Assembly: GCA_044892505.1 (NCBI GenBank)
Contig: CM097884.1
Coordinates: 156,178,001 to 156,242,000 of the forward strand
Direction: 5' to 3'
Source: Schmidtea nova
Lineage: Eukaryota
DNA: 64,000 nt
The position numbers and the translations under genes are program-made. The notes under the pieces are model-generated. The model did no database searches. It saw only the letters and a program-made list of their open reading frames with translations, and had not been told where the DNA came from. Positions within the stretch are counted from its first letter, which is position 1. Each line of letters opens with the position of its first letter. Positions 31,727-51,673 of this stretch are shown here, in pieces.

Positions 31727-32083
31727 CTATGGCTCATTCGTTGAATCTGGTTCCGCTTCGTTGTTTAATCTATTTATTACCCAACTCATCCATCCTTCTT
31801 CGGATCCTTCTCTTTCTCCTCGTGTTAAATGGTTTATTTCTATTGCTTGTCTTTGATTGGTGTTGCTTATCGTTTGATTTTCTCTGGTGAGTTCAGTTAT
31901 CGCTCTTTGTTGTTCTTCTATTCTGTGTAATTGTTCAAAACAGTTGTTATAACTTTCTGATAATAACATTTGTCTTTCCGCTAATTGGTTCTGTAATGAG
32001 TTGACTGTTCGTACTAATAAATCACATTGTGCTTTCCATCTCATAGCCATAGTTATTTCAGTTGTTTCGTCCTGTTCGGTCAT
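31727..32083 (-). CDS. 118-aa coiled-coil protein with C-terminal Trp-rich amphipathic segment
   Basis: Heptad-rich core, EGWMSWVINRL near the C-terminus, and AG three bases before the ATG. Confidence 0.7.
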   Translation of the reverse strand: MTEQDETTEITMAMRWKAQCDLLVRTVNSLQNQLAERQMLLSESYNNCFEQLHRIEEQQRAITELTRENQTISNTNQRQAIEINHLTRGEREGSEEGWMSWVINRLNNEAEPDSTNEP

Positions 32084-32208: not shown

Positions 32209-35200
32209 CTATACCATCATTATCGTCTTTTCCTCGTATCGTTCTTCATCTTCTATTTGTTTCCAGAATTCTTTACCTTTCGTTCTTCTTTGAAATTTTT
32301 GCTGTATCTCTTCTGGTATTTCTATTCTTTGCTTCATAATTTTAATATCTGGCCATTGTATGGCTGTCGCTTTGTTTCTCTTTCTGTATCTCCAATATAC
32401 TATTATGCTTGTCGTCAGTATTCCATATGCTATTAATATTCCTATACTCATTAATCCTATTATTGTTTTTCCACGGTTTGTTGCTTTGATTTTATTCTGA
32501 TTCGCTTTAATCTCATTTTGGGTTTGAGCCTCTGGCTTCTTCTCCTTCTGTACTTGATTCTTGACTTTGTTCATTACTTCTTGTGTAGACCAATGGCGGT
32601 TTAGTAGTTGTTTGACGTTATTTTCTTTTGTTCGGTTTTCCATGTTTCCTGGTTCGATCTGTTGTTGTAGTTTCTCTGAGATCTGATATAATCCGCATTC
32701 TGGTTTTTCTGAACCTTCTCTGGTGAAGGTACATATCGCGTATGTCCTATTTACTTCCATTTTCTTTAATTCGACTTTTTCCTTATTCCCTATTTCTTTA
32801 CAGTGGGTTAGGTTGTCTTCTTCCCCTTCTGGGTTATGCTTTGTCCAACATATTCCTTTAACTGTTTGATCGAGTCCTGTTATTGTCAGGGTTCTTTCTG
32901 TCTTTGTTAATTCTTCTTCATCGAATTTCAGTATCTCTCCTTTTTGAAATGTCTTGCACTTTTCTATTCCGGGTTGATCTTCTTGGATTCCTTTCTCCCA
33001 TATACATATACTTCCTTCTTCATTCATTTGTATTTCTTGTATTTCGATTTCCTTGTTTGTTTGTGATTCGTCGCTTGTCTGTACTTGGTATTCCTTCCTT
33101 GGTTCGTTGTATGTTCCCCAGCATAGTTTGTTGCTGCTTGTTTTTCTTATTGTTATGGCCATTTGTTCTATTATTATTCCTCTGTCAAAACGTTTGGACA
33201 TTGCTAGTATTAATGCTATGCATACGCACTCCTGTGGGGGTGATATTCTTTCTCTCGTTTTATTGGTGCTTCTCTCCCCTTCTCTTGGTTTGTTCGTTGT
33301 ATTTTCCTTCTGAGTTGCTGGTCGATCTATTGTGTTTTTGATCTCTTTCTTTGTTGGTTTTACTTTGTACCATTCAAGTCTGGGCGTTTCATATTTTTGA
33401 CATACGACTGTCTTAGGTAGCCCTGACTTCTTTTCCTTTCCTATTATGCATATCCGATGCATGATTCCTCTATCCATCCCTTCTATTCGTATTATATCCT
33501 GGTCGGATTTTCTGATTATGCATTTTAGTGGGTTATCTTTCCCAATTGGTTCATCCTCCCTATTCCAGCATATTTTCTCGACCTCCTGGACATTTACTAT
33601 TTTTATCCCTGCTTGTAGGTTTGTTGCTTCTTCCCTATTGATTAATGTCAATATTATTGTTAGACCCAACCATTTTGAACTCTGCGGTAGGCTTCTGGTT
33701 CGCCTTTCATATTTTTTCTCTTCGCCTTTAATCTCTTTTATTTCCTTGTCTTTGTTGTTTATTCCTAGTTTTCCGCTTTTCGCTTCTTTCTTATTTGGTT
33801 CTTCTCGTGCTTTTTCTTCTAGTATTTCTACTCCATGGCTTGTATTATCTATATTTAGCCATTGGGTTGTTGATTTTCTTGGGCTTATCTTGCGTAGCCA
33901 TATAGCTGATAACGCGATTATTACTGGTATGGTTGCTGTTAATATTCCTAAGCCGATTAGTTCTTTAATTTCTTTATTCTTGTCTGTTTGTATAGGTTCG
34001 CTTTGGTTGAACATTATTCCGTATTGTCCCTTTAGTTTTCTCATTAATTGTTCTCGTTCCTCTTGCTTTCTTTTGACTTCTTTGATAACTTCTTCAGGTG
34101 TCCATTTTGCTTGAGGGTCGGTTATTGTTTTTTCTACGTTCATTTGTTCATTCGTTTGGCTTAGTTCCCTGAATTCGAGTTTCCTTGTTATTCCTTTTGA
34201 TGTTGCGTTCGCTGGTGTATAGTAGGTTTCGCATCTTTCTTGTTGGTTTCCTAGTGCGTCCGTTTTTTCTATTGTACATACTTCGTACTCGCTATTAAAT
34301 TGTAGTTTTTCGATCTTGATTTCTTTATTTGTTTTTCTGCACTCTCTTGATTGTCTTCTTATATGTTTTTGGACTATTATCCAACATATCTCCAATGTTT
34401 TATTCTCTATTTTCCATAATGTCAGAGTTGCTGATGTCTTTTTCTCGGGTTTTGTCGTAACTTCTTGGCTTATCGGTTGTTTATTGTTTTTAAAGGTAGT
34501 GGTGTACTTCGGTTTCCCTTTGTTTCGTTGTCTTCTTTTATTTTTTCGTGTTATCGTTTTAGTTCTTGTTCCGGATGAAGTGGTGTATATTCCGCATTCT
34601 AGATCGTTTATCGTTATCTGATCATTTTTCTTTACCAGACATATTTCGTAAGTTTGTTTCCTTTCTAAACCTTTTATTTGTATCGTCGTTGCTCCTGTGC
34701 TTGTTCGACATTGTGGTGTCTTTCTTTCATTCGTCTCTTTTTCGTACTTCCTCCAGCATACTCCTTTCACATTTGGTTCTATTTCTTTTATTTCTAATGT
34801 TATGTTTAGTTTCTGCTTGATTTGTTTATTTCTCTTCCTCGTTCTCCTTCTGAACTTTATTACCTCTCCAGGTTGGAATGTTTTACATTTTGTGGTACCT
34901 TTCTTGTTCCTCTCTTTTTCAAGTAGGCATAGTTGGTACATCTTGTCTGCTCTTACTTCGGATACTTTAATTACTTTGTTTGTTGTTGGCTTTCGACTTT
35001 TCCTTATTTCGTTTACACCGATTTCTTCGTCATTCCTCGCCCAACATTTTATGTTAGTGTTCTGTGTATCTTCCACTTCTGTTATTGTCATAGTTTCAAT
35101 TTCTATTCCTTCCTCTAATCGTTTTATTATTATTAGTATGAGTGCTAAGCATAATACTTCCATTTGGTAAGACACTCTTTCGGTTTCGTTTGTGGCCACT

Positions 35201-35640
35201 CTTGCTTCGGGCCTCTTTATTGTAATTCGTATAGTTGGTGTTGTTTGCTTATCTATTGCCTGGGGTTTTTTGTTTTCTGTTCCCTGTGTCTCTGTTCTTC
35301 CGCATTTTCCAATGATGTAATCTCCTTTGGGTGACTGTTGTATTGTCATGGCTGCTTTAGGTGTTTGGTATTTTGCACATGCGATTGTGTTGTGTGATCT
35401 TGGATGCATTTGTTTCCTAACGGTGCATATTTTGTACCAGGTATCTAGATCTAAGTCATTTATCTCTATGATTTCTTGCTCGTGTTCTGAGATTCTGCAA
35501 TCCATCGGGCTATTTTGTTCCGTGACTTTGTCCTTTTTCGACCAACATACTCGTTCGATTCCTTTTGCGTTTTTTATTTGTATTATTGCCCTTTCTTCAC
35601 ATGTCATTCCTTGACTTGGATTAATTAACGTTATAATCAT
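32209..35640 (-). CDS. 1143-aa membrane protein with about seven FN3-like Cys-containing repeats and two TM segments
   Basis: Repeats of CW...C...I..L....Y.IC...C (e.g. IEINDLDLDTWYKICTV, IQIKGLERKQTYEICLV). TMs are LIGLGILTATIPVIIALSAIW and IIGLMSIGILIAYGILTTSIIVYW. The FN3 assignment is by motif resemblance. Confidence 0.75.
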   Translation of the reverse strand: MIITLINPSQGMTCEERAIIQIKNAKGIERVCWSKKDKVTEQNSPMDCRISEHEQEIIEINDLDLDTWYKICTVRKQMHPRSHNTIACAKYQTPKAAMTIQQSPKGDYIIGKCGRTETQGTENKKPQAIDKQTTPTIRITIKRPEARVATNETERVSYQMEVLCLALILIIIKRLEEGIEIETMTITEVEDTQNTNIKCWARNDEEIGVNEIRKSRKPTTNKVIKVSEVRADKMYQLCLLEKERNKKGTTKCKTFQPGEVIKFRRRTRKRNKQIKQKLNITLEIKEIEPNVKGVCWRKYEKETNERKTPQCRTSTGATTIQIKGLERKQTYEICLVKKNDQITINDLECGIYTTSSGTRTKTITRKNKRRQRNKGKPKYTTTFKNNKQPISQEVTTKPEKKTSATLTLWKIENKTLEICWIIVQKHIRRQSRECRKTNKEIKIEKLQFNSEYEVCTIEKTDALGNQQERCETYYTPANATSKGITRKLEFRELSQTNEQMNVEKTITDPQAKWTPEEVIKEVKRKQEEREQLMRKLKGQYGIMFNQSEPIQTDKNKEIKELIGLGILTATIPVIIALSAIWLRKISPRKSTTQWLNIDNTSHGVEILEEKAREEPNKKEAKSGKLGINNKDKEIKEIKGEEKKYERRTRSLPQSSKWLGLTIILTLINREEATNLQAGIKIVNVQEVEKICWNREDEPIGKDNPLKCIIRKSDQDIIRIEGMDRGIMHRICIIGKEKKSGLPKTVVCQKYETPRLEWYKVKPTKKEIKNTIDRPATQKENTTNKPREGERSTNKTRERISPPQECVCIALILAMSKRFDRGIIIEQMAITIRKTSSNKLCWGTYNEPRKEYQVQTSDESQTNKEIEIQEIQMNEEGSICIWEKGIQEDQPGIEKCKTFQKGEILKFDEEELTKTERTLTITGLDQTVKGICWTKHNPEGEEDNLTHCKEIGNKEKVELKKMEVNRTYAICTFTREGSEKPECGLYQISEKLQQQIEPGNMENRTKENNVKQLLNRHWSTQEVMNKVKNQVQKEKKPEAQTQNEIKANQNKIKATNRGKTIIGLMSIGILIAYGILTTSIIVYWRYRKRNKATAIQWPDIKIMKQRIEIPEEIQQKFQRRTKGKEFWKQIEDEERYEEKTIMMV

Positions 35641-35675
35641 TGTTAGTAATAGTAATTCTGGTTTGAAGAATGGTT

Positions 35676-38600
35676 TTATGGTTGATTTATAACCTGTTCT
35701 TTGGGTGTCATTTTTATCTCCTTGGTCGTTTGTTCCTTGTTCTCTCTCTTCATCTCTTTGTTTTTCGTCTTCACCTTTCTTTCCTTCCTTGTCTCGTTTT
35801 CTTCTTTATCGGGTGGTTCGTGATCGCTTGAATTTTCTGAGTTGTTACCGTCGTCACTATCTGTGTTGTCATCTCCCCCTGGCTCGTCGAAAATGTCGTC
35901 CTCGACATTGATTTCTTCTATTAGTTTCGCATACGCTAATGTCGTTAGATTACTTGCCTCAAATTCTTGTGTTTCTACCTGCTCCGGTATTACTTTGTTA
36001 GTGGATTTATGTTCCAAGATTTCCTTTTTGGCCTTGATCCAATTGTTGATGTATGTCTTCATCAATTCTTTCCATTTGCCTGTGTATTTTTCCTCTTTCG
36101 GGCTGGTTGTGATTTTTAGATCTTTTCTTTCCATAAACATCTTCAATATCTCTGGCCATTTATACGTTATTAAGGCACTTCTTATACACCAGTTTTGGTT
36201 ATGTTCTGTAAACTTATTAATCCTGAATGCTGGTTCGTTAGTATTAGGATTTATCCACGTAAGTATTGATTCTGTTAGTTCGACGTTGTTCATCATTGCT
36301 AGTACACTGGGTTTCTTGACCGTATCAGTTAGGTGATCTATTTCTTCCTGATTTGGGACGGTTTTAATGAAATTGACCATTATCCAATTGTGTGTTAATA
36401 ATGCTACATCCAATATCGAATTATCTTTATCTGTCTTTCCTGTAAGTCCTGCACCTGCTTTGTATAGTTCTTCTAATACCTTTGTTTTCGTTTTGGCCCT
36501 TGCTGCAAATACCATAAGTGTATCTCCTTTCTCGTCTATCATATTCATATTGCTTCCGCAATTTAGCATTACTCTTGCAATTTCCATTACTTTCCTATCT
36601 TTGCCATTTCGTAGAGCTCTATGTATGGGCATTATTCCGTCTTTTGGTAATAGGAATGTTACTGGCATCTCCTTTTTTATTATTACTATGTCGTTACCAT
36701 TGTATGTTCCTTTTGCGTATGCGTGTACTTTTTCAACTAATGCGCCGAGTATTTCCAGTGCATGTTTACTATTCTCGAATTCCGGTAACAATTCTTTTGC
36801 TTTTTCTTGTATCGCATCTAGTCTAGCTTGATATGGTGCTTCTGCTTTGAAGAGTGGTGTGAGTTTCTTGTTACTTTCTCTTTCTTTTTTCTCTAAAACC
36901 TGTTTGCATTTTTCGGGATGGTTTAAGATTTTTACTAATTCCTCATATTCGCTTACTATCATCTGGTATTTCTCGTTAAAATTGTTTATGTCTTTGTATG
37001 TTATTAGTTTATCAAGTGGTTTCGCACACCATTTCCTAATCTTATTGAATAAGGCTTCCTTCTCTTTATCGAATTTGTATTCTTCTTCATTCTTTGTGAT
37101 GTTTATGTTTCCTCTGTCTAATAAGGTTAGTAATGTCTTCTGATCACAAGTAAATTTCAGAAGATATCTTAACAGCGCGTTTTGTCCTTCGCTGTATACT
37201 TCGTTTATGTCTAAGACCCATGTATCCTCTTCTGGTCGTTTCCATTTGATTAACTTACGGATCGTGTTGCATTTACCAATTTTGATTGCCTCTTTGATAA
37301 TGTCTCTTTTAACCAATTCGTCTATCTCCCAAGTGCAGTTAGCTATTATGTATTTCAGCATTGGTTGGTGAGAACTCCATATTACGTGATTTAGCACTGT
37401 TTTGTCCTCTCTATCTCGTTCTGTCCAACTGAAATGAGCTTTTATCAATAGATCTATCATTTCTTTATCTGCTTGGTGGATTGCGGCTGTCATTAATGGA
37501 GTTTCTTGTTCCCGATTCCCTACGTCCAAGTTTTGGTTTGTTTCTTTTGCGATTTTTAGGAATTCTTTTGCTCTTTCAATGTTTTTACACTCTATCGCAT
37601 TATGTAAGGCTGGTTGTCCTCCTACATCTTTCAATAAGAGTATTTCAGGGATTTTTTCCAATAATTCAGAAATAATTGGTTCGGTTGGTAATCCTTGTGC
37701 GTAACGGCTAATTATATGTCTAATATCCCTTGATATGCCTGCTTCGTCTCTAACATGCCATCTTCCCATTATCTCTCTCGCCTTCAATATGATTTCTTTA
37801 TTTCTGATTTCCTTTTGCCTTATTTCTGCTTTGTCGTCTTCCGTTACGTTAGCTCTGAGCATATTTATCCTGGCTGTTTGTGATCTAGTTATTATTCGAT
37901 TTTCTGGTGTTGTAGTTATCGTTTTAGGCACCTTCTTACATCTGCAGGTGTTTACATATATGGGTCGTATTAACGGTCGATTTATTAGCTTAACTTTGAC
38001 ATTATTGTCCTTTTTGTATATAATTTCATAAGGTCCTTTCCCAGGTCTTTGGAGTTTCTTAACAGTTCCTGGTATTATTTCGGGAGTTTCTATTATCACC
38101 CAATCTCCTGGTTTTAGATCGTTCGCTTTAACATTTTTCTTCTGGTCATGTAAATCCTTATAACTTTCCTGATAAAATTTAATGTTGAGTTCTGCCGTTT
38201 TCCATATTTCCTGCATTCTTTCTTTGAATTTGGTTACGTAGTCGTCATCTTCCATATATTGCGATAATGGTGGCTGATACTCTAAATCTATGGGCATGTT
38301 GCATTCTCTTCCATACATAAGTTGAAATGGGCTTAGTTTTGTTGCTGCATGTATCGACATTCGGTATGCCATTAAACATAATTTTATATATTCGTCCCAA
38401 TCAGTCTGATGTCTGCTGACGTAATTTGATAACATTCTGATCAATGTACCATTGAATCGCTCCGTTTGTCCATTCGTTTGCGGGTGATATGGTGAAGTTC
38501 TCAATTTTGCTATTCTGAAATAGTTTGTTACCTCGTTCAATAACTCACTCATAAAATTAGTTCCTTGGTCTGTGAGTATTTGTTTTGGAGTTCCGTATCT

Positions 38601-41600
38601 GCAACATATTTCTTCTACCAAAATTTTTGCTACGGTTTTTGCTTTTTGGTCTTGCATGGCAAATGCTTCCGGGAATTTCGTCAGATAATCCGTTATTACC
38701 AATATATAAATATTTCCGTTTAAACTTTCTGGTAATGGTCCTATTACGTCCATTGCTATAGTTGTCATTGGCTCTGCTGGTATCGGCATTGGTTGTAGCG
38801 GGTTCTTCCATTTCTTCCCACTATCCTTTCTGGTTGCGCAAGTTAGACAATTTTTAATCCATTCTTTTATATCTTCTTCCATTGTTCGCCAATAATATTT
38901 TTGTCTCATACGATTTATTGTCTTCTTCTCGGACATATGACCTCCTAATTTCCCATCATGGTACTGGATCATTATCTCTTTCCTTCTGTTTTCCGGTAAA
39001 CACATCAATCTCTTTTCTCCGTCTTGTATTAACAACCATCCTTTATTTATTATGTAGCGATGTTGATATTTTCCTATATGTTCCTTTAGTTCCTTATTAT
39101 CCTTGAATGCCTCCATATTTCGAGACGTTAGGAACTCTATGATCTGTCCTAATTCTTTGTCTTCCTGTTGATCTTTCTTTAACTCACTAAAATCCAAATC
39201 TTCCGCTATTAACACACAAATTCGTTGTACATCAGGATCGGTTAATTCCGGAAATGTCAGTCTTGACATACAATCTGCATTCGCATTCGCTTTTCCTGAT
39301 TTAAATTTTATGTCCGGTGAGTACTCCTGTAACTGCATTGCCCATCGCATTAATCTACTGGATGTTTCCTTGTGCTGTCCTAACCATACAAGCGGTTGGT
39401 GATCTGTTGTTATGCAGATGATGTGACCCCATAATAAATATTTAAAATGTTTTATTGCTAGTATAATCGCTAATGCTTCCCGTTCTGTCCCTGAATAATT
39501 TTTCTCATGCTTTTTGAATGTCCGGCTATAATATCCGATTACACGTTCTTTTCCTTCGTCGTCGTATTGTCCTAATACGGCTCCTGCTGCATATCCGCTT
39601 GCATCTGTTGCAAGTAGGAATGGCTTCTTAAAGTCTGGGTGTACTAATATGGGTGCGGTTATCAGTTTATCTCTCAATGTTTCAAAGGCTGTTTGCTGTT
39701 CGTCCCCCCATATGAATGATACATCTTTCTTTACCAGTTCCTGTATAGGCTTTGCGATTCCGGCGTAATCTTTTATAAACTTTCTATAGTATCCACATAA
39801 TCCGAGAAATTCTTGTATTTGGGTTATTGTTTTTGGTACTGGGCATTCTTTTACCTTGTCGATATTTCTAGGATCCGGTTCTTTTCCTTTTGCTGACACT
39901 ATATGTCCTAGAAATGTTACTTTCTCTTTTGCCCAATCACACTTGGATGGCTTGAGTTTTAACTTCCATTGTCTAAGTCTAACGAATACATCTCGAATAT
40001 CTTGTATGTGTTGTTCAAATGTACTAGAGTAAATCAATAAGTCGTCGATGTAGACCATGCACTGCTTTATTCCGTGGGTGACGAAATTCATGCATCTCTG
40101 AAATGATGCTGGTGCGTTCGTTAATCCAAATGGCATTTTTCGAAATTGATATAAATCTCTCCCGATGGTAAAGGCAGTTTTCTCTTTATCTTCTTCCTTC
40201 ATTTTTATTTGCCAGTATCCGCTTTTCAGATCTAACGACGTAAAATATGCTGCTCCCTGTAAGGTTAATAACATTTCATTGATGTCCGGTAATGGGTACG
40301 TATCTCGTTTGGTCACTGTATTCAATCTTCGGTAATCTATACAGAATCTCTGTGTTCCGTCTTTTTTCTTTACCATTACCACTGGAAATTGCCAGGGTGA
40401 ACAACTTGGTTCGATTACTTCTGCATCCAACATTTTCTTCACTTCTGCTTCTGCTACTGCTTTCTGTGCTTCCGCTAATTTGTACGGCCTTAATGCAATT
40501 GGTGTTTCATCTGTTAATGGTATTGTATGTAGTGTGACATCACATGTTCCTAGATCTAAATCGGATGCTGCAAATATATCCTTATACTCTATCAGTAGTT
40601 TTTCTAACTGCTTCTTCTGGTCCTCATTTAATAATTCACTATCAATATTCCAGGTTGGTTCCTTATCTTTCTCTGCCCCTTCTATTGGTAGTTCGATATC
40701 CATCATTGGGGTTAATTTACCTAATCTTTCGTTTTCGTATATTATTTTGTCCTCTTCATCGAAGTTTACTACGTTTATTGGGATTTCTCCATCATCGTTT
40801 ATGTTAACTAGTCCTCTTGCCATTGGCAACGCTTTCCTTTTCTCGAATCTCTTACTTGGTTCGAAAATCATATCCCCTTGGATTGTCGGATCTATTTTTA
40901 CGTAACATATTTTCTCCTTTCTTGCGGGTATTATCATTTGCTTTGAACTCGTCACTTTGGCTTCTATTGCGCATATTTGTCCTGTGCGATCCTTTAGTCT
41001 CATTGTTCCGAGGTCGATTACAATCTCTTTAAATAATGCTGGCATCAAATCTGTTCCGATGATGCAAGGTACGCTTAATGCTGGTATAACTGCTACGTAT
41101 GTATCGATTTCCGTGTTTAAGTGGCGTATTTTTACCCACCATCTTCCTGCTACTTCTACAACTTCTTTGCTACATGCAATTACATGGACGTTTGTCCTTT
41201 TTATATCTCGTCTTTGCTCTTGTGGTATCCATTTGATGTCGATGGCGGAAATGTTTGCTCCAGTGTCGATCATTGCTTCGATTTCTCTTCCGTTAATTTC
41301 TATTGTCGTGGTTAGTACTGGACCTGTGTTTGATGACATTACTGCGATCGTGTGTGTATCTCCTTGTGGATCTACGCTTCTACATCTTCTCATTTTATAA
41401 TCTTCTGGTATCATGGGGTATACATTTGTCATTGGCATCATTTGCATCGTGCTATTTTTTCCTCCTTGTAGTGGTTCTTGATACATGGTTGGTGGAGGTG
41501 CGTAACATTTCCATGCGTCGGCTGGATTCTTTTCGATGTATTGTGGTGCTTGGTTCTTATACACTTGTCCTCCTTTATAGTCGTCATCGTCGTCATCGTC

Positions 41601-43394
41601 GTCACTCGAATCATGTTGGGTTTTATATCCTTTCATCCTCTCCCATAAACCTTTTCTTTCTCTCTTGAGCTGTTGTCTTGCTTGTTCGTCATTCATTATC
41701 TTTTTAAATTTTCGTCCTACTTCTTCATCTGTTCCCTTCATTTTTGCTAATATCTTTAGGAGTCTTTTTATTCGGTGGATATCTTTTGAGTGACCGTGTA
41801 ACACCATCGTTTTCGCAAGGAATGGTAAAAACCCTACTACCATTTTCCAATTCACTTTCTTTTCTCTCTTGTAGATATCGAAACATGCGAGCATTTGCGT
41901 TATTATCACTCTGACGATTTGTATTATTAATATAACCCCCAGTATTCCAGCCATCATTTGTCCGAATATCAGAAATCTTCCCCACATTGCTTTCATCATA
42001 TTTTCTGTGGCTTTCTTGAAGTGTGCTGGTGACAACAACCGTTCATAATTCGGTCCTTCTCGATAATCCGTTCCTCCCGTTATCGTTACGATATTTGACA
42101 GTAATGCTTCTCTTCTTGCCGGGAATAATATATTCTGCCTTGCTGCTTCTAAATCTTTCGGACTATATATTCCATTGTTTGAGACATCTACGTCGCTGAA
42201 TTGCCTATCCTTTGACAACTGCATTAGCTCGAATTCTCTTGGTGCTATCACTTCGGATCTTCCTGGGAACATAACCCATTTACCATCTGGTTTTTGATAA
42301 AGCGGTCCATACGCATTACTACAGTTGAATGGATTTGGTTCAAACCCTGGTGGATTGATGATTCTCGTCACTGGTTGAACGTATCGTACTTTTCCTTTAT
42401 AATCGATTTCTAACTCATTTGTACAGGTTCCAGGTTTCAACTGTGTTGTTGCTGCTAGCGATGCGTGTGTCTTTTCGCAGATGTATACGTACATTGCTTC
42501 TCCGACCACTCTTCCGAAATGTCCTTCTCTCAGTGGTAATAATGGCATCGCGCTATCTGGATTCGTAATCGCTACTGCCAACTTTGTCTTTAATATTTCT
42601 CGATTCAGTATACAATCATTGTTTATTAGATCGTAGTACACTTTTTGTAATGAGGCTTGTCCTCTATGGAATAGGAAATCCATTTTATTATTCACATACA
42701 GGTGTAGTTTGATATCCATTGTGTCGATTTTGGGTTTCGCATTCGGCACTTCTTGTTTTGACACATATATTCCTGGATAATTCGTTTCGTATACCGTTGT
42801 ACTACACTTAAGGGTTGCTTTCCCTTTTATGAACCTCATTCCCACATCCTGATTTGTGGTTATCAACACTGTTGGTGTGGCTCTCATCTCTATCCGTTTT
42901 TCTCTATGATCCGGTTTCAGTTGTCTTTTATTCTCCAAAGCTTCCTTGAGATGCTTTGCTCTAGCTTTGTCGTCATCGTCTTCTTCCTGAAACGTTTTTC
43001 CTTGGATTTCGTCGAACTGTGCTCCTTGTAGCAGTTGTAATTGACATTCGTTCACCTTTGGTTTGTACACTAATGTTGACATTCCCGTTTGACACATGCT
43101 CCTGTCGATTTTACACATGGATAACGTTTTCATTTCTCCCGTTGTTGGTTCGAAGAATGCTTCATAGCTTTTTAATTCGACTATATACGTATCCATTACT
43201 ACTAGGTTGGTTGCGGGTACTCCGAATATCGGGTAGGTTTCTCCCTGACAATATCCTTCTCCTCCCGTAATCCGTCCTGCTACATAGTACGTCTGTTGCA
43301 TCATCATTCCTGGCTTTCCTCTTATCTTGATTTTATCTCTTGTTGTTACTTCTCCATGTTTAAACAGTGCTTTGCAGTCTTCTCCTTGTAACAC
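35676..43394 (-). CDS. 2572-aa segment: envelope C-terminal part - protease - RT - RNase H - integrase - ankyrin repeats
   Basis: PR MIDTGAN (~41260), RT LDLKSGYWQI/MPFGLTNAPASFQR/YIDD (40041-40052), RH LATDAS...TEREALAI...TDHQPL. IN HDGKLGGH...CLTC, AMDVIGP, TDQGTNF, NGQTERFN, GPY (~38030). Ankyrins GQPALHNAI, ETPLMTAA, IMPIHRAL, GDTLMVFAA. Confidence 0.96.
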   Translation of the reverse strand: MLQGEDCKALFKHGEVTTRDKIKIRGKPGMMMQQTYYVAGRITGGEGYCQGETYPIFGVPATNLVVMDTYIVELKSYEAFFEPTTGEMKTLSMCKIDRSMCQTGMSTLVYKPKVNECQLQLLQGAQFDEIQGKTFQEEDDDDKARAKHLKEALENKRQLKPDHREKRIEMRATPTVLITTNQDVGMRFIKGKATLKCSTTVYETNYPGIYVSKQEVPNAKPKIDTMDIKLHLYVNNKMDFLFHRGQASLQKVYYDLINNDCILNREILKTKLAVAITNPDSAMPLLPLREGHFGRVVGEAMYVYICEKTHASLAATTQLKPGTCTNELEIDYKGKVRYVQPVTRIINPPGFEPNPFNCSNAYGPLYQKPDGKWVMFPGRSEVIAPREFELMQLSKDRQFSDVDVSNNGIYSPKDLEAARQNILFPARREALLSNIVTITGGTDYREGPNYERLLSPAHFKKATENMMKAMWGRFLIFGQMMAGILGVILIIQIVRVIITQMLACFDIYKREKKVNWKMVVGFLPFLAKTMVLHGHSKDIHRIKRLLKILAKMKGTDEEVGRKFKKIMNDEQARQQLKRERKGLWERMKGYKTQHDSSDDDDDDDDYKGGQVYKNQAPQYIEKNPADAWKCYAPPPTMYQEPLQGGKNSTMQMMPMTNVYPMIPEDYKMRRCRSVDPQGDTHTIAVMSSNTGPVLTTTIEINGREIEAMIDTGANISAIDIKWIPQEQRRDIKRTNVHVIACSKEVVEVAGRWWVKIRHLNTEIDTYVAVIPALSVPCIIGTDLMPALFKEIVIDLGTMRLKDRTGQICAIEAKVTSSKQMIIPARKEKICYVKIDPTIQGDMIFEPSKRFEKRKALPMARGLVNINDDGEIPINVVNFDEEDKIIYENERLGKLTPMMDIELPIEGAEKDKEPTWNIDSELLNEDQKKQLEKLLIEYKDIFAASDLDLGTCDVTLHTIPLTDETPIALRPYKLAEAQKAVAEAEVKKMLDAEVIEPSCSPWQFPVVMVKKKDGTQRFCIDYRRLNTVTKRDTYPLPDINEMLLTLQGAAYFTSLDLKSGYWQIKMKEEDKEKTAFTIGRDLYQFRKMPFGLTNAPASFQRCMNFVTHGIKQCMVYIDDLLIYSSTFEQHIQDIRDVFVRLRQWKLKLKPSKCDWAKEKVTFLGHIVSAKGKEPDPRNIDKVKECPVPKTITQIQEFLGLCGYYRKFIKDYAGIAKPIQELVKKDVSFIWGDEQQTAFETLRDKLITAPILVHPDFKKPFLLATDASGYAAGAVLGQYDDEGKERVIGYYSRTFKKHEKNYSGTEREALAIILAIKHFKYLLWGHIICITTDHQPLVWLGQHKETSSRLMRWAMQLQEYSPDIKFKSGKANANADCMSRLTFPELTDPDVQRICVLIAEDLDFSELKKDQQEDKELGQIIEFLTSRNMEAFKDNKELKEHIGKYQHRYIINKGWLLIQDGEKRLMCLPENRRKEIMIQYHDGKLGGHMSEKKTINRMRQKYYWRTMEEDIKEWIKNCLTCATRKDSGKKWKNPLQPMPIPAEPMTTIAMDVIGPLPESLNGNIYILVITDYLTKFPEAFAMQDQKAKTVAKILVEEICCRYGTPKQILTDQGTNFMSELLNEVTNYFRIAKLRTSPYHPQTNGQTERFNGTLIRMLSNYVSRHQTDWDEYIKLCLMAYRMSIHAATKLSPFQLMYGRECNMPIDLEYQPPLSQYMEDDDYVTKFKERMQEIWKTAELNIKFYQESYKDLHDQKKNVKANDLKPGDWVIIETPEIIPGTVKKLQRPGKGPYEIIYKKDNNVKVKLINRPLIRPIYVNTCRCKKVPKTITTTPENRIITRSQTARINMLRANVTEDDKAEIRQKEIRNKEIILKAREIMGRWHVRDEAGISRDIRHIISRYAQGLPTEPIISELLEKIPEILLLKDVGGQPALHNAIECKNIERAKEFLKIAKETNQNLDVGNREQETPLMTAAIHQADKEMIDLLIKAHFSWTERDREDKTVLNHVIWSSHQPMLKYIIANCTWEIDELVKRDIIKEAIKIGKCNTIRKLIKWKRPEEDTWVLDINEVYSEGQNALLRYLLKFTCDQKTLLTLLDRGNINITKNEEEYKFDKEKEALFNKIRKWCAKPLDKLITYKDINNFNEKYQMIVSEYEELVKILNHPEKCKQVLEKKERESNKKLTPLFKAEAPYQARLDAIQEKAKELLPEFENSKHALEILGALVEKVHAYAKGTYNGNDIVIIKKEMPVTFLLPKDGIMPIHRALRNGKDRKVMEIARVMLNCGSNMNMIDEKGDTLMVFAARAKTKTKVLEELYKAGAGLTGKTDKDNSILDVALLTHNWIMVNFIKTVPNQEEIDHLTDTVKKPSVLAMMNNVELTESILTWINPNTNEPAFRINKFTEHNQNWCIRSALITYKWPEILKMFMERKDLKITTSPKEEKYTGKWKELMKTYINNWIKAKKEILEHKSTNKVIPEQVETQEFEASNLTTLAYAKLIEEINVEDDIFDEPGGDDNTDSDDGNNSENSSDHEPPDKEENETRKERKVKTKNKEMKRENKEQTTKEIKMTPKEQVINQP

Positions 43395-43714
43395 GATTGG
43401 TCTCTTTCCGTTCCTGGCATGACAATTGCTGAATAATGTCCTCTCCCGCAGTAGAATGCGAATCTCGTCTTCTGCACTTTACATTCATTCACCATTGTCT
43501 TTATGAGTTCTGCTTCTTGATACACGTGGTACCATTGTTCCTTTTTAATCTTTTGCAACTCTACTGGAGTCGCATCTTTGCATTGCTCCGTACCTCTCAA
43601 TGAATACTTTTCTCCTAACTTCATTTGGTCGCAATCAAACACTTCGAATGCTGTTGCGCTATCGGTGCTAATCATCCAAATCAACATCATCATTATTATA
43701 GCACTCAGATTCAT
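41760..43714 (-). CDS. Class III fusion-type envelope glycoprotein (chuvirus G / herpes gB-like), split by a -1 shift at ~43400
   Basis: Signal MNLSAIIMMMLIWMISTDSATA|FEVFDC, then YSL...C, VYQ, FYCG..HY, VAG...CQG, NNK...LYYDL..NDC, GEAMYVYIC, VQPVTRII, GIYS..DL and TM WGRFLIFGQMMAGILGVILII. Family recognised from memory of the motif series. Confidence 0.82.
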
Positions 43715-45550
43715 TGATGACTTTGCGTTTCCTGTTCCTGCTTGTTCTTTTCCTAACTCTTCCAATATTTTTTCGAATTTCTTTTTCATATTCTTGGCTT
43801 GTGTTTTCTTCTGGTTAGTTTTTATAAATGTTTCCCATCCTCCTTTGTTAATGACGTATGGTTCTATTTCTCTCGCTATAATTTTTGCGGTATTTTTTAT
43901 ATGTCTCTCTAATGCAGTGGGTTTTGGTCGACCTCTACTCAGTGTCAACAGATTGTAGATCGTGTATGCAATAGCTATTACGTATTTGTTATCTGTTTCC
44001 GCTCCTTCTGTCAGTTTCTTTATTAACATAGTGGTTCCTTGCCAGTCTAAGTGATTTGATTTCGTCTTCTCTTTTATGAATTCCGGTAAGATGGGTGCGA
44101 TTGCGCTGTGTAGTGACTTCGCCTTTTCGCTTATCTCCGTTATACGCCAGTATTTTCTTAATTCCGGATCAATTATTGCCAATAGTTCCATTATTGTTTT
44201 CGATATCCATTCCTCCCCTTGACATATTGGTGTTGTCTCTTTTTCTTTCATCTCTGCGATTTTGTTTAATTTCTTTAAACATAATTCCCATTGATCTTGT
44301 CTCTTTTCATCCTTATTTCTGATAACTACTGTTGCTGGGTCTGTCTTGGGTCTACCTCGAGGTCGTTTATCCATTCCTGTACCTGTTTCCACAAACCTTG
44401 TTGCTCGTCCGGTTTCTTCGGTGACATCTCTTGGTTCGTTAGCTCTTTCTTCTAACCATCTTTCCATTTCTTGTGTTAATTGTACATTTTCGACATTCGC
44501 TCCTCTCGTTTCATCTTCCGTCAAATCGTTTACCTCTTCTATTATTATCTCTTCTTCGACTTCTGTTTCTCCGGTGTTGGTTACTTGTATTGTTGTAGGT
44601 AGTTCTTGTATTCTTTCGAAAATGTTATCGTCCTTTTCCCTTGTTAATTCGGTTAATTCTTCTATCATATCGTCGCTGTCTGTAAATATTTCGTCCACGT
44701 CATATGGTTGTGGTGGAGTCCTTTCTCTATTTCCTCTGGGTGTTGTCTCAGATCGTCTCGAACTTGTCCCTGGTGTTAGTGCTGATTTCATCGGGCTCGG
44801 CGTACTTATACTTCCGTGTGGTTTATGGTTTTCTTCTTTACGTTTCAATGGTTGACCCGCTATTGCTTCTACTGTCAAGGTATTCATGAGGTCTAATTGT
44901 GCTGGCGTTATTCCAATCTCTAAACTGTTATCTAATGATCGTCCTTGGTGTTGTAAATGGAATGGTGGTTCGTATCTCAATTTCTTTTTAATATCTCGAA
45001 TTTTTTCTGCTATTCCTACCCAGAGCTCTTCCTTATCCTTGTTTGGATATATTATTCTTAAATGTACTTTTTGTGGAATTTCTTGCGAGAATTCTTGATT
45101 TCTCCATTTCCTAATTACGTGGTCTAGTTGTTCCGGGCACCACTCGTTAACTCTTTTATATTCCGCGATTGCTTTTGCTACTTTACGTAAGCATGTTATA
45201 TCCTCCCCATTTACCACGAAAAAATCTGTGAGACCCTTTATTACTTTTCTCTTACCGTGCGCATTAGTTTTTAATATTTCGACGAATTCTTCCGTTTTTT
45301 GCTTTTCCCTTTCCAACCACATAGCCGCGGTTTCTGGTCCATCTAGGTCTATTGGCGTAGCTTTCCTTGTCACCATGCAAACCCTTCCCATCTCTGGTTC
45401 GCAGTCATCTTCAATTCCTCTTTTATATTCTTCTTCATATTCCCCTTCTTTTGGTTCCCAACATTTTCCTTTCTCGTTCCATTGTTTTTCTACGGGTGTT
45501 CGTATTCGTCTGTTGAGATTGAGTTCTTCTAATACATTTTCCCACTCTGG
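43346..45550 (-). CDS. Polyprotein segment with AT-hook, Bcl-2-like domain and envelope N-terminus
   Basis: In frame with the upstream ORF across the TAG at 45551-45553. It carries KRPRGRPK (~44345-44368), EPYVINKGGWETF (~43830-43865) and the envelope signal peptide. Confidence 0.8.
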   Translation of the reverse strand, partial: PEWENVLEELNLNRRIRTPVEKQWNEKGKCWEPKEGEYEEEYKRGIEDDCEPEMGRVCMVTRKATPIDLDGPETAAMWLEREKQKTEEFVEILKTNAHGKRKVIKGLTDFFVVNGEDITCLRKVAKAIAEYKRVNEWCPEQLDHVIRKWRNQEFSQEIPQKVHLRIIYPNKDKEELWVGIAEKIRDIKKKLRYEPPFHLQHQGRSLDNSLEIGITPAQLDLMNTLTVEAIAGQPLKRKEENHKPHGSISTPSPMKSALTPGTSSRRSETTPRGNRERTPPQPYDVDEIFTDSDDMIEELTELTREKDDNIFERIQELPTTIQVTNTGETEVEEEIIIEEVNDLTEDETRGANVENVQLTQEMERWLEERANEPRDVTEETGRATRFVETGTGMDKRPRGRPKTDPATVVIRNKDEKRQDQWELCLKKLNKIAEMKEKETTPICQGEEWISKTIMELLAIIDPELRKYWRITEISEKAKSLHSAIAPILPEFIKEKTKSNHLDWQGTTMLIKKLTEGAETDNKYVIAIAYTIYNLLTLSRGRPKPTALERHIKNTAKIIAREIEPYVINKGGWETFIKTNQKKTQAKNMKKKFEKILEELGKEQAGTGNAKSSMNLSAIIMMMLIWMISTDSATAFEVFDCDQMKLGEKYSLRGTEQCKDATPVELQKIKKEQWYHVYQEAELIKTMVNECKVQKTRFAFYCGRGHYSAIVMPGTERDQSCYKEKTAKHCLNMEK

Positions 45551-48205
45551 CTAAATTCGCCAATTTCGATAAATTTCTACTATTTGTTGTAATTTGCGCA
45601 CAACTTCTTTCCGTCGTTCCCGTTCTTTTTTCTCGTCTTTAGCAGTTTCTCTTGGTGTATCGTCCATTCTGCTAACGTGGATGGTTTGGTGATTATCCCA
45701 TATACCGATTTTATATAGTCGTCTCTCATCGTGATCCCATAATACATGTTCGTTGTATTGTATGATTATGTCGTCTTCCCATTCGTCTTCTGGTTCTCTT
45801 TGCACTAGTGTCTCGTTGATGACATTTATTAATTCTTTAATGGTGCAGTCCGCTACCACTTCGATTTCTTTGGTGTCTTCATTAGGTAACTCTACTGAAA
45901 TTTTTAGATCTGTTATTTTCCCTTGTCTGAACATTGTTTTTCCCATTTTTGCGATTAATTTATCGTGTGAGATTTGTGACCATCTCGTGTGACTTGTGTC
46001 ACGTATGCACTCAATACATCGTTTCAATTTCTCGTATTCGCTTCTCATTAACTCTTTTCTATGTTTTTTGACTTGTGGTATGATTTGTTCTATCAGGGAA
46101 TTTAGATTCTTTCGTAAGACTCGTTCTTTCTCGTATTCTAACCGAGGTTTTATTCTCCTTTCGAAGCACGTGTTTGCCTCCCTTGCAACTTCTTGTAGGT
46201 TTTCTTCTTCCTTTTCATCACATATTGATAATAGGGTTATTTCTCCTGGCCATATACCTGTTTCTACTAAGTGCGTTCTTTTCTTTACGAGTCTATTCTG
46301 CGAATAGATGAATTTGTTTTTATATGAACTCCCTAGTCTGTCCTCTACCCATCTGTAGATATCATCTGTAAATGGAGTTTTGATCCAGATTCTTGGTGTA
46401 GATGTATTTATTATTATTGAGATGGTGTAATTGAGAAGTGGTTCCTCTATTAATTTCCCTACGTATCGATTCAACATGTCTACTTCCCGGTCTTGTAACC
46501 ATTCTTTGTAGTTCATTTGTAATAATGCTTTCATGAATTTCCGATATTGTTTCTTGTCCATGAACTCTTCGTTATATATTACTTCTAGCGAGTTATCTAG
46601 TAATTTCTGGATTTCATCTACTTTTATCTGTGTAGGTTCTGAGGTCTTTATTACTTCTCTCTCTTTATTTTCGTCTTCGGATTCGTTTAATATGTCTCCT
46701 GCTAGGCTACTGATATCACTATCTTCTTCTTCATCGGAAAACTCTCTGGTGGTATTTCTTAACATATTAATATGTGCTGTTTGGTTCGTTTCTCCTTGTA
46801 TATTCTCCGTTGGTTCTGGTTCGTTTTTGTCAATTTCTGGTGTTGGTTCACTCTTGTCCTCTATTACTTCGACTTTTTCCATTTTCTTTCCCAACTCGTC
46901 TATCTCTTTTAAACGTCTTCTTATCATTTTTCCTTCAAATATTCGCCGGATTCGGGTTTCGTGACGTATTGGTGGTGGTATTTCTTCTGGTTCTATTTCT
47001 TTAATTCTCATCACATTTCTTTTTGTTTCTACTACTCCCATGTTTTCCCATATATCCGTTAATTTCAATTTTACTGATGGTGCATCTCCTATTTGTAAGA
47101 ACGCTTCTCTGGGCAGCTTCGTTACTCCTGGAATCATCTGGTTTACTTTGTTGAATAATACTTTCACTTCTTCTTTTACGTTATATTGAAACCTAAACAC
47201 ATGGTCGTTGGGCATTATTACCATCATTCCTTTTTTCCAAATTTTCCTTCTCTCTTCCTGGTTTATCTCAGTTTCCCCTTCCTTTTTTATTTCTTTTTCT
47301 ACTTCTTCATCTTTTTGTACTATCTCTTTTCGACTTTCGTTGTCGGCTGGATTTGGGTCTATCGAATTCATTTCTAGTGTGGTTTCTTTCTCGCGAGTGT
47401 CTGTTTGGTTTGTTGCTCTTAGCATGTTAATTCTTAGAGGTTGTCGTTCTCTTTCTTTCTGTTTTTGTTCATCCTCTCTTTGTATTCTTGCCCATTCCTG
47501 AGCGTGTCGTGCCTGACTTTCTCGATTCAATCGTTCGTTTTCGCTTTCTATTTTTCTCATCATGCTAATTTGCTGTTGATTGGTTTGCGGATTTCCTCTC
47601 GTCGTATTGTTTATAAGTTCCGTCAATCTTTGGACTTCTTGCATTAAATGTATTTCTTTGGGGGTGGTTTTGTTCTGATTATTGTTATTATTGACTTGTT
47701 GGTTCCCATAATCTGGTCGGTTTACGGTATTTGCTTGATTTCCGTAATTTGGTCGGTTCCCATTACTCTGCCAGTTTCCTCGTTGATTACTTTTTTGTCC
47801 GCAATTTCTTGAATAGTGACCAGGTCGTCCGCAATTAAAACAGATTATTGTAGAACATCTGCTTTCCGAGTGTCCTTTAACTCCACATTTTCCGCAATTC
47901 AAATTTTGATAGCATTCTTGCTGCCAGTGTCCTAACTTCCCGCATGTTTTACATTGTTTTGTTTGTCTTTGAGGGTTGTAATTGTTTTGGCTTTCAAAGT
48001 TCTGCACTTAATTTCCTTCATTCCTTCGTTGAGGGGGTGGTCGGTTTAATTGTTGCGAATTTGGAATGTGATTGTTGAGATTTACCTCTGGTTCGGTTTG
48101 TGCTGTGTCCATGGCTAAATAAATTCTGCCCTCACTTCCTATCATATGCAATTCAAATCGGTTAGCTGTTTCTAACGATTGATCTATGGTTTGCATCCTT
48201 GACAT
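45551..48205 (-). CDS. Gag C-terminal part: three CCHC knuckles and extension with ubiquitin-like domain(s); in-frame TAA at 48008-48010
   Basis: CKTCGKLGHWQQEC, CGKCGVKGHSESRC and CFNCGRPGHYSRNC (~47810-47955). UBL-like LKISVELPNEDTKEIEV...TIKEL...L...GIWDNHQTIHV (~45670-45910). Confidence 0.85.
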
Positions 48206-49245
48206 CCTACTTGCGCTCTTATGTCGGGTCTTCTTAATCCTCCTATGAAGATAGCTGCCATTAACTCCTCGTTTATTGGACCTCCATCCTTGAATACCGA
48301 TTTTGCTAATTTTTTCAGTTCGCTCGCGTATACCGCATTAGATTCATTCATCTTTTGTTTCCTCATTGAAAATTCTATGAATGCCTCGCTTAGCACTTTA
48401 TTTATTCCAAATGTTTGTTGGAAAAAGTCCTTTATCGCTGTCCAGCTTGTAGGTGGATTGGTACCATTTTTCGCTTCCAGATATAGGTCCAATGCACTAT
48501 CTTTCAAATATAACTGAATTCTGCTTACCGTTGTTTCAGCTTTCCACTTGCATACCTCCACGAATATGCCAAATTCTTTTAAAAAGGTTTCTAATTTACT
48601 CGCATCTCCGTTAAACGGTTCTCCTGAAAATTTATCCTTTATTTCTTCTCTTGGTTCACCCATTTCAATTCCGCTGTCTTGAGTTATTTTACTTTCGTTT
48701 CCTCTTGTTTCTAGTTCGTTGTTATGTTCGTCTTCCGTTTTACTCGAGCTTGAATCGCTTTCTGTTTCTCTTATTCCTTCGTTATCTGATATTATACTTT
48801 CGTTATCACTCGCGTTGATTTCTATCTCTGGTTCTACCTCGTTTTCTACTTCTTCGATATTATCGTTGTTAGTTTCGTCGATTTCTCCTTCTTGTTCTAT
48901 CTCGTGTTCTATTTCTTCGATATTATCGTTGTTAGTTTCGTCGCTCTCTATTTCACTTGCTTGGTTCTCCTTGGGTTCGGCTTGGTTTTCTTTGTTACTT
49001 GAGCTGTTGCTTATTATTGACAATTTATCGTTTTCGGTAATCGATTTATCTCTTATTATTTTCCTCGATTTACTCCCTTGTGGGTTATCTTTGCCGGCTT
49101 TCTGCTTTTTTGTTGATTTTGTTGTAGTACTGGTTTTGTCTTTTTTGTTAATGTTGCTACCGACTTTCTTTTCCGTTGGCTTTACTACGACACTCTTTGC
49201 TCCTTTTCTCAAGGGGATTACTTTTGTATACTCAATTTTCTTGTC
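48184..49245 (-). CDS. Gag N-terminal/capsid part, no nearby ATG
   Basis: Basic then acidic low-complexity N-terminus. Capsid motifs FNGDASKLETFLKEF...LYLKDSALDLY...SW..IK..F..TF and MHR-like KQKMNESNAVYASELKKL, then FIGGL. Confidence 0.85.
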   Translation of the reverse strand, partial: DKKIEYTKVIPLRKGAKSVVVKPTEKKVGSNINKKDKTSTTTKSTKKQKAGKDNPQGSKSRKIIRDKSITENDKLSIISNSSSNKENQAEPKENQASEIESDETNNDNIEEIEHEIEQEGEIDETNNDNIEEVENEVEPEIEINASDNESIISDNEGIRETESDSSSSKTEDEHNNELETRGNESKITQDSGIEMGEPREEIKDKFSGEPFNGDASKLETFLKEFGIFVEVCKWKAETTVSRIQLYLKDSALDLYLEAKNGTNPPTSWTAIKDFFQQTFGINKVLSEAFIEFSMRKQKMNESNAVYASELKKLAKSVFKDGGPINEELMAAIFIGGLRRPDIRAQVGCQGCKP

Positions 49246-49824
49246 CTATCTCTTATCGTGTTCTGATTCTTCTTGCTTGATTGATTGATTTGATTGATTT
49301 GTATATCTAAAATACAAAGGTCCTCAACGATACATTATTGTTATCGTCGCGCTTTTATTCCCTTTCTTTCGGGATTACTTATTACTGGGTTTTCATTATT
49401 TCCCAATTCCCAGATTCCCCTTTATTTTTAGTCTATTTAAATTATCTATAGACTGGTCACAATTATCTATTTACGTCGTAATAATTATCTATGTTTTATC
49501 AAATCGATTACTTTTCCCACAGTTTCCCAATTTATTGGTCGCTCGAGCGCTCTAATTCCCTGAGTCTTTCTGACTCGTTTACCATTATTTTATCATCTCT
49601 ATTCATTATTCCCTGCTAGCAATCGTTTTACTCATTCTGCCGGTTGCTCCGGTCAGCTCAAATCTCTACTATTCTCCTTGCATGCTTTACTTAAGGTTGC
49701 ATAATCAGCTTTACTCGCATTTTCTTAACTACTGGTGCGCACTACTCTAAATCTCGTCGACGATTATACTATGGGTCTATATTCCCCCTGTTACTATTTA
49801 TCCGGATATCTCTATAATTCACTA

Positions 49825-50085
49825 TGGCTCTTCTGGCCTCAATTTTATATCTCACATGGCTCTATTGGCCTCATTTTACTATCTCAAATGGCTCTATTGG
49901 CCTCAATTTAATCTCTCAAATGGCTCTATTGGCCTCAATTTAATCTCTCAAATGGCTCTATTGGCCTCAATTTAATCTCTCAAATGGCTCTATTGGCCTC
50001 AATTTAATCTCTCAAATGGCTCTCGTGGCCTCAATTTAATCTCTCATAACGCCTAGCTAGGTCATTCACTATGGCTCATTGGCCT
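49825..50085 (-). repeat. 32-bp tandem array (~7 units) containing CCAAT boxes
   Basis: Unit TGGCTCTATTGGCCTCAATTTAATCTCTCAAA at 49857, 49889, 49921, 49953 and 49985 plus degenerate units. The minus strand reads GGCCAATAG. Confidence 0.95.
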
Positions 50086-50086
50086 C

Positions 50087-50409
50087 AACCCTTTTTTTCA
50101 AGGGACAAACCGCTAATAACCCTTTGTTTCAAGGGACAAATCTCCTAACCCTTTGTTTCAAGGGACAAATCTCATAACCCTTTGTTTCAAGGGACAAATC
50201 TCCTAACCCTTTGTTTCAAGGGACAAATCTCATAACCCTTTGTTTCAAGGGACAAATCTCATAACCCTTTGTTTCAAGGGACAAATCTCTTAACCCTTTG
50301 TTTCAAGGGACAAATCTCATAACCCTTTGTTTCAAGGGACAAATCTCCTAACCCTTTGTTTCAAGGGACAAATCTCATAACCCTTTGTTTCAAGGGACAA
50401 ATCTCCTAA
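50087..50409. repeat. 29-bp tandem array (10 units + 1 degenerate)
   Basis: Unit AACCCTTTGTTTCAAGGGACAAATCTC(A/C/T)T with an internal CCCTT/AAGGG inverted repeat and no spacers. Confidence 0.97.
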
Positions 50410-50885
50410 CTTTACTTAACCGGTTAATCACAATTCCCTACTTCGCTAGCGATTAAAATTTCTCAGCTGAGTTATAACTACTTCTATGCGAGCTGACTAT
50501 GCACCTTTTATTCTCTCAGAATTGTCGTTTATCTCTGTATTCTATCATAACTATTCCTGATCAGTCTGCTTCAACTTTTTATTTATTTTTCTCTATGCGC
50601 GCTTTACTCCATCAAGATTTCCCTATCTCTCTCCCCAACCAAAATATACAAAAAGATCGCGTTGGTCCATTAATGCAGGATGTGGTGATCAATCACATCA
50701 CAAAAACTTTCCAACATTTGCGATGGGCCCCTTTCTATACACCTTGAATAAGTTGATCAATCGGTACCTCCCAATGGATTCCTATCGGACTACTTTGCAG
50801 TAGCTCAAAAATTATTTATATATGACAATTGTACCCATGATTTCCTTATTAATAAATCAATAAAATTCCATTCAAATTTCATTTA

Positions 50886-51656: not shown

Positions 51657-51673
51657 TCCCGGCTGAGCCCCCA
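51657..51673 (-). promoter_or_regulatory. Primer-binding site, tRNA-Pro
   Basis: Minus strand TGGGGGCTCAGCCGGGA, 6 nt from the LTR end, closely resembles the known tRNA-Pro PBS TGGGGGCTCGTCCGGGAT. Confidence 0.88.

Follow-up and report, generated by a model that had tools for sequence, protein, structure and literature searches.

The 64,000-nucleotide stretch of the Schmidtea nova genome analyzed here (assembly GCA_044892505.1, contig CM097884.1, positions 156,178,001 to 156,242,000 of the forward strand; hereafter the window) carries on its minus strand a Ty3/gypsy long terminal repeat (LTR) retroelement of 29,713 bp, located at 25100-54812 and with an internal region of 23.4 kb (Table 1). 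The element has features of Metaviridae: its LTR pair, 99.84% identical, is bounded by a target-site duplication, its pol domains follow the order protease, reverse transcriptase, RNase H and integrase (PR-RT-RH-IN), and its Gag combines a capsid match below the cut-off with CCHC knuckles. The best long protein matches are K02A2.6-like gypsy polyproteins, and the same genome holds at least 86 sister copies, counted as matches to the second FN3-like module. Just inside the 5' LTR lies a primer-binding-site-like 18-mer, which may resemble a tRNA-Pro site; no tRNA gene was found in the 64-kb window and no clean polypurine tract in the element.

Gag, Env, Pol, ankyrin repeats and a membrane-anchored tail resembling fibronectin type III (FN3) domains follow one another in the window copy, interrupted by stops and frame changes. 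A preliminary description of the locus had proposed that a single open reading frame (ORF) is hidden by four stops and three frame changes, and its coordinates were re-derived here. An ATG at 49335 lies in the gag frame, 5,709 codons from the end of the tail at 32209; in-frame stops end at 49324, 49246, 48008 and 45551, and all three frame changes are -1. The FN3-like frame is open for 55 codons above an ATG at 35640 and encodes there the hydrophobic stretch KPFFKPELLLLTMIITL, and the acceptor-like sequence TGTATTTTAG, ending at 49307, is present. The proposal is right for five of these seven breaks and wrong about the start of the frame.

Copies of the element elsewhere in the genome carry this conclusion. 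Four DNA searches, from each of which the best 40 of 189-609 candidates were taken and 30 loci fetched, yielded 29 siblings each, a sample that favors close relatives (93-99% identity). Across the first shift, near 48205, the frame is open in all 29; across the second, near 43400, it is open in 28, the remaining sibling having a stop elsewhere, and over each of these intervals every sibling is one base longer than the window copy. Neither 48008 nor 45551 is a stop codon in any sibling, and two siblings have another stop near 48008. From pol into the FN3-like region a single frame runs through 28 of the 29 (the last could not be aligned), with 19 additional bases in 20 siblings and 10 in eight, so that the single-base deletions originally suggested hold for two of the shifts and fail for the third. 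The four stops divide likewise: 48008 and 45551 do mask the frame, and 49324 and 49246, present in all siblings, lie outside the family frame altogether. In a protein search of the genome, tallied by hand, the frame ran unbroken for 5,646-5,736 codons in 19 of 72 sibling matches, a further match carried a flagged stop, and the domain order of this giant frame is Gag-Env-PR-RT-RH-IN-ankyrin followed by two FN3-like membrane modules. We also considered a separate FN3 gene starting at ATG 35640 and rejected it, as this ATG is kept in just 23/29 siblings and has no acceptor-like site before it; the stretch KPFFKPELL is read in the pol frame in 28/29. When 20 copies picked from the hit lists were read in overlapping stretches, 4 had no break, 11 had one and 5 had two to eight, at positions that vary from copy to copy, and the accessory ORFs stayed separate.

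The same siblings decide against programmed recoding, in which -1 frameshifting and stop-codon readthrough would set the Gag:Env:Pol ratios. All three shifts are indeed -1, and a canonical slippery heptamer, T_TTA_AAC, which had been reported absent, lies at 43364 within the second overlap and in the upstream frame (frame by hand arithmetic); an A-rich heptamer at 48315 in the first overlap is out of frame, and the pol/FN3 overlap has none. However, none of the five internal breaks occurs in any sibling, the heptamer falls outside the translated frame in the siblings, and programmed readthrough at 45551, once kept as an alternative, has no stop to act upon in any of the 29. The shift near 43400 moreover splits the Env ectodomain, cutting a single Pfam glycoprotein domain (PF24664, positions 5-113 before the shift and 243-579 after it), and because it splits this profile it argues for a lesion. 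Recoding is refuted for the family, and a low level of leakage in the window copy alone would not be selected; we regard programmed recoding as extremely improbable, and conclude that the single polyprotein is the correct reading.

Selection acts on the entire frame. Pairwise ratios of non-synonymous to synonymous differences (pN/pS) over 20 copies were 0.03 for the capsid, 0.11 for the knuckle region, 0.08 for the Bcl-2-like region, 0.03 for Env, 0.02 for Pol, 0.10 for the ankyrin region and 0.18 and 0.26 for the two FN3-like modules, against 0.90 for a leader control, and the accessory ORFs gave 0.06-0.26 (Table 1). The frame below the AUG at 48663 is thus under purifying selection throughout (0.02-0.26), and the contrast with the leader control is large enough to indicate that all of the cargo is maintained during replication.

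The tail consists of two modules that are 30% identical to one another (E 9e-44); both begin with a signal-like stretch and contain Cys/Trp repeats as well as a transmembrane helix. A two-module profile searched against 1.84 billion proteins returned three matches, all fn3-repeat proteins (E 1.8e-7 to 6.2e-4); the FN3 match in Pfam was weak (E 0.0049), and the Atlas leads were FN3 proteins at 0.82, below that resource's own bar. A search for homologues of the region found none at E 0.001 among 7,999 candidates scored, all 628-2001 residues long. The modules are likely FN3-like, judging from these profile matches.

Table 1. Features of the Schmidtea nova element, in window coordinates.
Feature	Position	Strand	Remarks
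5' LTR	51680..54812	-	3,133 bp, TG...CA ends, 4-bp target-site duplication TAAG; 5 substitutions and no gaps relative to 3' LTR
Primer-binding-site-like 18-mer, TGG at start	51656..51673	-	6 bases past LTR
RING ORF, 153 aa, C3HC4, in leader between primer site and gag	50886..51347	-	PF13920, E 1.2e-11
Two tandem arrays in leader (32-mer x7, 29-mer x11)	49824..50410	-	
Three-codon upstream ORF (uORF) headed by ATG 49335	49324..49335	-	ATG and stop each in 29/29 siblings; not the polyprotein start
Splice-acceptor-like site	49307..49316	-	10-mer identical in 28/29 siblings; putative use
194 open, AUG-free codons above AUG 48663	48664..49245	-	Translation likely, from a near-cognate codon such as the candidate ATT 49236
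First in-frame AUG (48663) and Gag capsid-like domain	48184..48663	-	PF03732, E 4.8e-4, below cut-off; cut by break 1
Break 1, frameshift	overlap 48184-48337	-	Private to window copy
Break 2, premature stop	48008..48010	-	0/29 siblings
Three CCHC zinc knuckles	47801..47953	-	PF00098, E 1.1e-8
Break 3, premature stop	45551..45553	-	0/29 siblings
Possible Bcl-2-like domain, BH2-like motif only	43751..44263	-	6/7 PDB matches point to Bcl-xL, at a single motif and below significance (E 1.5-2)
Env: internal signal-like stretch, Monjiviricetes-type fusion glycoprotein, transmembrane helix	41799..43714	-	PF24664, E 6.3e-7 before break 4, 5.5e-59 after
Break 4, frameshift within Env	overlap 43346-43478	-	Private to window copy
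PR, dUTPase-like remnant (weak), RT, RNase H, integrase	37900..41309	-	Pfam
Ankyrin-repeat region	35950..37800	-	PF12796, E 8.9e-12, match 37338-37607
Break 5, frameshift, acidic pol/FN3 linker	overlap 35676..35805	-	10-19-base shortfall relative to siblings
FN3-like membrane module 1: signal-like stretch, about four Cys/Trp repeats, transmembrane helix	33850..35676	-	
FN3-like membrane module 2 and polyprotein stop	32209..33690	-	Stop in 18/20 copies, 2 unalignable
x1, 118 aa, coiled-coil-like, separate in siblings	31727..32083	-	pN/pS 0.08
TRAF-like ORF: RING, TRAF zinc fingers, MATH	30257..31633	-	PF22486, E 6.1e-21; pN/pS 0.15
x3, 353 aa, coiled-coil-like	29082..30143	-	pN/pS 0.06
x4, small membrane protein	28437..29006	-	pN/pS 0.26
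3' LTR	25100..28232	-	Contains two ORFs, 26356-26835 and 25568-26176

Some details complement Table 1. An Atlas search with the possible Bcl-2-like part (43751-44263) gave no usable match. Of the two ORFs in the 3' LTR, both on the minus strand, that at 25568-26176 is open in 19/20 siblings and has no match in one, and that at 26356-26835 encodes 159 aa, compared with 124 aa in the 5' LTR copy; both have TATAG directly before the AUG and no Pfam match. Elsewhere in the window lie an ORF of 598 codons for a hAT-family transposase with a Spin-doc zinc finger (13822-15618, minus strand), degenerate remnants of RNase H and integrase from a different gypsy element (57878-58755, minus strand), an IS1595/ISXO2-like DDE transposase (6022-6663, minus strand) between 83-bp inverted repeats (5852-5934 and 7040-7122), an AT-rich satellite of 13 copies of 274 bp (21013-24557) situated 540 bp from the 3' LTR, and inverted repeats like those of miniature inverted-repeat transposable elements at 1278-3293 and 18226-18920.

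How the window copy came to be broken is a separate matter. From the LTR divergence of 5/3,133, about 14 substitutions are expected in 17 kb since insertion, and the changes private to this copy comprise 12 non-synonymous and 18 synonymous ones plus the two stops, a tally consistent with recent neutral decay superimposed on older changes that had passed selection. The breaks would thus be mostly mutations that arose after insertion, and the window copy would make at most a truncated Gag. The competing possibility is that the locus itself is unbroken and that errors in the assembly consensus produced some or all of the five breaks: two of them are one-base shortfalls, the commonest type of long-read error, the LTRs are young, and the median sibling has one break, not five. 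One break, however, spans 10-19 bases and two are substitutions, the count of private non-synonymous changes agrees with the LTR age, and the number of breaks varies from 0 to 8 among siblings in this assembly, which leaves assembly error unlikely in our estimation. Read contigs available over 29760-49750 (four runs of unrecorded kind, from one study) pool all copies and cannot resolve single-copy alleles.

Several observations count against the interpretation of the locus as a decayed copy of one polyprotein gene. Five breaks are many for a copy with such similar LTRs, as at least five were found in only 2/20 siblings, and the LTR pair carries no indel, for which the chance at the ORF's rate is 0.33 (the 17 kb hold three indels and the 6.3 kb of LTR none, which is not inconsistent), so that assembly error may account for the two one-base sites. 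The siblings are the best-scoring matches, the best 40 of 189-609 candidates per search, and the pairwise pN/pS values are not independent of one another. The FN3 identity of the modules comes from weak matches, both modules contain an additional hydrophobic segment (35166 and its counterpart) that could alter the predicted topology, and translation of the giant frame in one pass, like its mode of initiation, is read from sequence.

Where translation of the giant frame begins is less plain than its extent. The preliminary description began the frame at ATG 49335, which is in frame and present in 29/29 siblings, giving an ORF of 5,709 codons through all four stops; yet the stops at 49324 and 49246 are common to all 29, 7/29 change frame between them, and there is no third-position excess in that interval, so that a start there is next to impossible. 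The first in-frame AUG is at 48663, in 29/29 siblings, and the 194 codons between it and the stop at 49246 contain no in-frame AUG in 27/29. This stretch nevertheless appears to be coding: over 214 codons the gag frame above AUG 48663 has a single stop, where the two other frames have 21 and 18, its length variants are multiples of three in 14/16 variant copies, unlike those of the leader, and its pN/pS of 0.36 compares with 0.85 and 0.93 for the two remaining sense frames, with a marginal third-position excess (27/61 sites, p 0.049). An antisense ORF at 48683-49288 was considered as the source of this constraint and set aside as a shadow, for it has no Met, a pN/pS of 0.58 and stops in 4/29 siblings.

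The surrounding leader is similarly unusual. The 672 nucleotides from 49335 to 48663 form the longest AUG-free gap among 528 AUGs (the next is 282), and only 4/2,000 dinucleotide shuffles of the stretch lacked an AUG; the leader upstream of the acceptor-like site, by contrast, holds 43 AUGs. That site, at the 5' edge of the AUG-free gap, is one of six passing a T-rich filter among 725 YAG, and the suggestion of a spliced gag start at 49307 stands insofar as the acceptor has gained support, but no coding exon can be joined there, as the frame below it runs into the shared stop at 49246. No splice-type joint at 49306 was present in the contigs from the four runs over 29760-49750. The codon ATT 49236 is invariant in 29/29 siblings and has a GAAA context, as at the accessory starts. 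Over 49254-49803 the leader differs between copies by 0.03, about three times less than the 0.08-0.17 at synonymous sites, which suggests an RNA-level constraint such as a packaging signal. The motif ATGTAT occurs on the minus strand a few codons before the gag acceptor (49335), x1 (32097), the TRAF-like ORF (31650) and x4 (29020), and in three of these four cases yields a uORF of three to five codons.

We tentatively favor a spliced leader followed by a near-cognate start for the polyprotein, the weakest part of our overall interpretation. Splicing to 49306 would remove the AUG-rich leader, and ribosomes would then initiate near 49236, at a near-cognate codon, or scan past it to AUG 48663. 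Another reading is that initiation occurs at AUG 48663 alone (about 5,490 aa) and that the 194 codons above it are an AUG-purged 5' untranslated region. This AUG is present in every sibling, constraint jumps there from 0.36 to 0.02-0.03, and the third-position excess above it is marginal; furthermore, in two other Env-bearing families (one copy each) the longest AUG-free gaps, 766 and 698 nucleotides, precede the polyprotein AUG and contain stops in every one of the three frames, and a T-rich AG marks the 5' edge of just one of them. The scarcity of stops, the in-frame length variants and the low pN/pS described above run counter to it, and we consider it a serious possibility, albeit a somewhat unlikely one. 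An AUG could also be spliced on through an acceptor located at 49245 or immediately below it, coming from a cis exon or from a flatworm spliced leader, such leaders ending in ATG (PMC12582326): the shared stop at 49246 is a TAG directly after which the frame opens, and T-rich AGs directly precede most accessory AUGs. The bases before this TAG are purine-rich, however, and the strong site at 49306 would leave such an AUG out of frame, making this alternative quite unlikely.

The accessory genes may use acceptors of their own. A T-rich YAG lies within 6 nucleotides upstream of 10/528 AUGs, including 4/5 internal accessory starts, by a filter that was set after the sites had been seen and in a setting where ORF starts follow stops and T-rich spacers anyway. 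In the polyprotein, internal signal sequences would thread Env and both FN3-like modules into the lumen of the endoplasmic reticulum (ER) and leave Gag, Pol and the ankyrins cytosolic, Gag, Env and Pol would be made at 1:1:1 without recoding, and the chain is predicted to be cut by signal peptidase and by the element's own protease. Extending this, we tentatively envisage a complex-virus-like agent in which a spliced, AUG-purged leader and a near-cognate start would yield two forms of the Gag polyprotein; Pol would stay cytosolic within a 5,700-aa chain that crosses the ER membrane at least five times and releases Env together with two captured FN3 surface proteins serving as decoy receptors or adhesins, and each of seven accessory genes, RING and TRAF among them, would have its own acceptor, served by cis-splicing or by a host spliced leader. 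As a whole this picture is speculative and rather unlikely to be right in every part. Murine leukemia virus glyco-Gag combines a near-cognate upstream start with leaky scanning to the Gag AUG, and complex retroviruses express accessory genes from spliced mRNAs; the element belongs to a different family, and its likeness to them in both features is drawn from the DNA alone.

Planarian Burro elements offer the closest known parallel. They exceed 30 kb, with an internal region of up to 25 kb, have ORF1s of 4,873 and 5,140 aa in which env sits in frame, flanked by gag and pol, carry MATH/TRAF, ankyrin, BCL2, BIR and accessory ORFs, and have been proposed to be integrated proviruses that meddle with apoptosis and ubiquitin signaling (PMC6431247). 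Like Burro1-4/GYPSM1 of Schmidtea mediterranea and the Burro-like element of Dugesia tigrina, as described there, the element in the window is about 30 kb long with one huge ORF1, three CCHC knuckles, a mononegavirus-like env between gag and pol, ankyrin repeats, MATH/TRAF and accessory ORFs; where Burro has BCL2-, ubiquitin/SUMO- and dUTPase-like parts, the corresponding places give at most weak signs, at E 0.07-2 or without a match. In contrast to the Burro ORF1s described there, the frame is longer (5,646-5,736 codons) and ends in two FN3-like membrane modules, the TRAF gene is separate and downstream rather than inside ORF1 (Burro1) or upstream (D. tigrina), and the upstream ORF is a RING; section 7 of that account names no FN3-like modules and does not take up the AUG-free leader or the problem of the start (PMC6431247). 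Kinship to Burro1-4 is judged by this description rather than by sequence comparison, and because a scan of 13 ORF pieces from the element gave no match to the BIR domain noted in Burro1-4, we call the element Burro-like and not Burro1-4. It is very probably a disabled copy of a Burro-like giant Ty3/gypsy element whose sisters encode, within a single frame of about 5,670 codons, Gag, Env, Pol, ankyrin repeats and two FN3-like modules, a frame likely translated as one polyprotein.

Other relatives share the core of this arrangement. Anakin elements of mosquitoes are BEL/Pao LTR retrotransposons that likewise possess a negative-strand-virus glycoprotein, from a chuvirus, whereas the present element is Ty3/gypsy; a giant polyprotein and host-like cargo do not feature in the available description of Anakin (PMC7642597). 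Two ENA/MGnify proteins, P0003 (3,771 aa) and P0004 (3,761 aa), encode gag-env-PR-RT-RH-IN in one chain, with Env 46% and Pol 44-45% identical. The same genome also contains Env-bearing gypsy families (L181-L184) in many copies, with frames of 3,393-3,401 codons that are preceded by 700-770 AUG-free nucleotides of leader and followed by an ORF of about 470-480 aa. Neither these families nor P0003 and P0004 match the ankyrin region or the FN3-like tail. The FN3-like tail, the downstream TRAF and the leader anatomy did not appear in the literature examined, although the original description of Burro (Grohme 2018), supplements included, may treat some of them. Searches for an FN3 cargo or a non-AUG start in such elements, and for later work on Burro, likewise gave nothing pertinent other than PMC6431247. 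A giant gag-env-pol polyprotein is a known trait of the Burro class, and what is new is a probable membrane-bound FN3-like tail and a probable non-AUG start.

A locus annotated as six genes is, in our reading, one decayed gene, and its stacked recoding signals are a false lead. The element adds to a little-studied class of Burro-like elements and offers a testable scheme of expression, with an acceptor at 49306, a start near 49236 and acceptors before the accessory AUGs. As dozens of young copies are present, selection can be measured on each domain of the cargo that these elements carry, the FN3-like tail and the accessory ORFs included.

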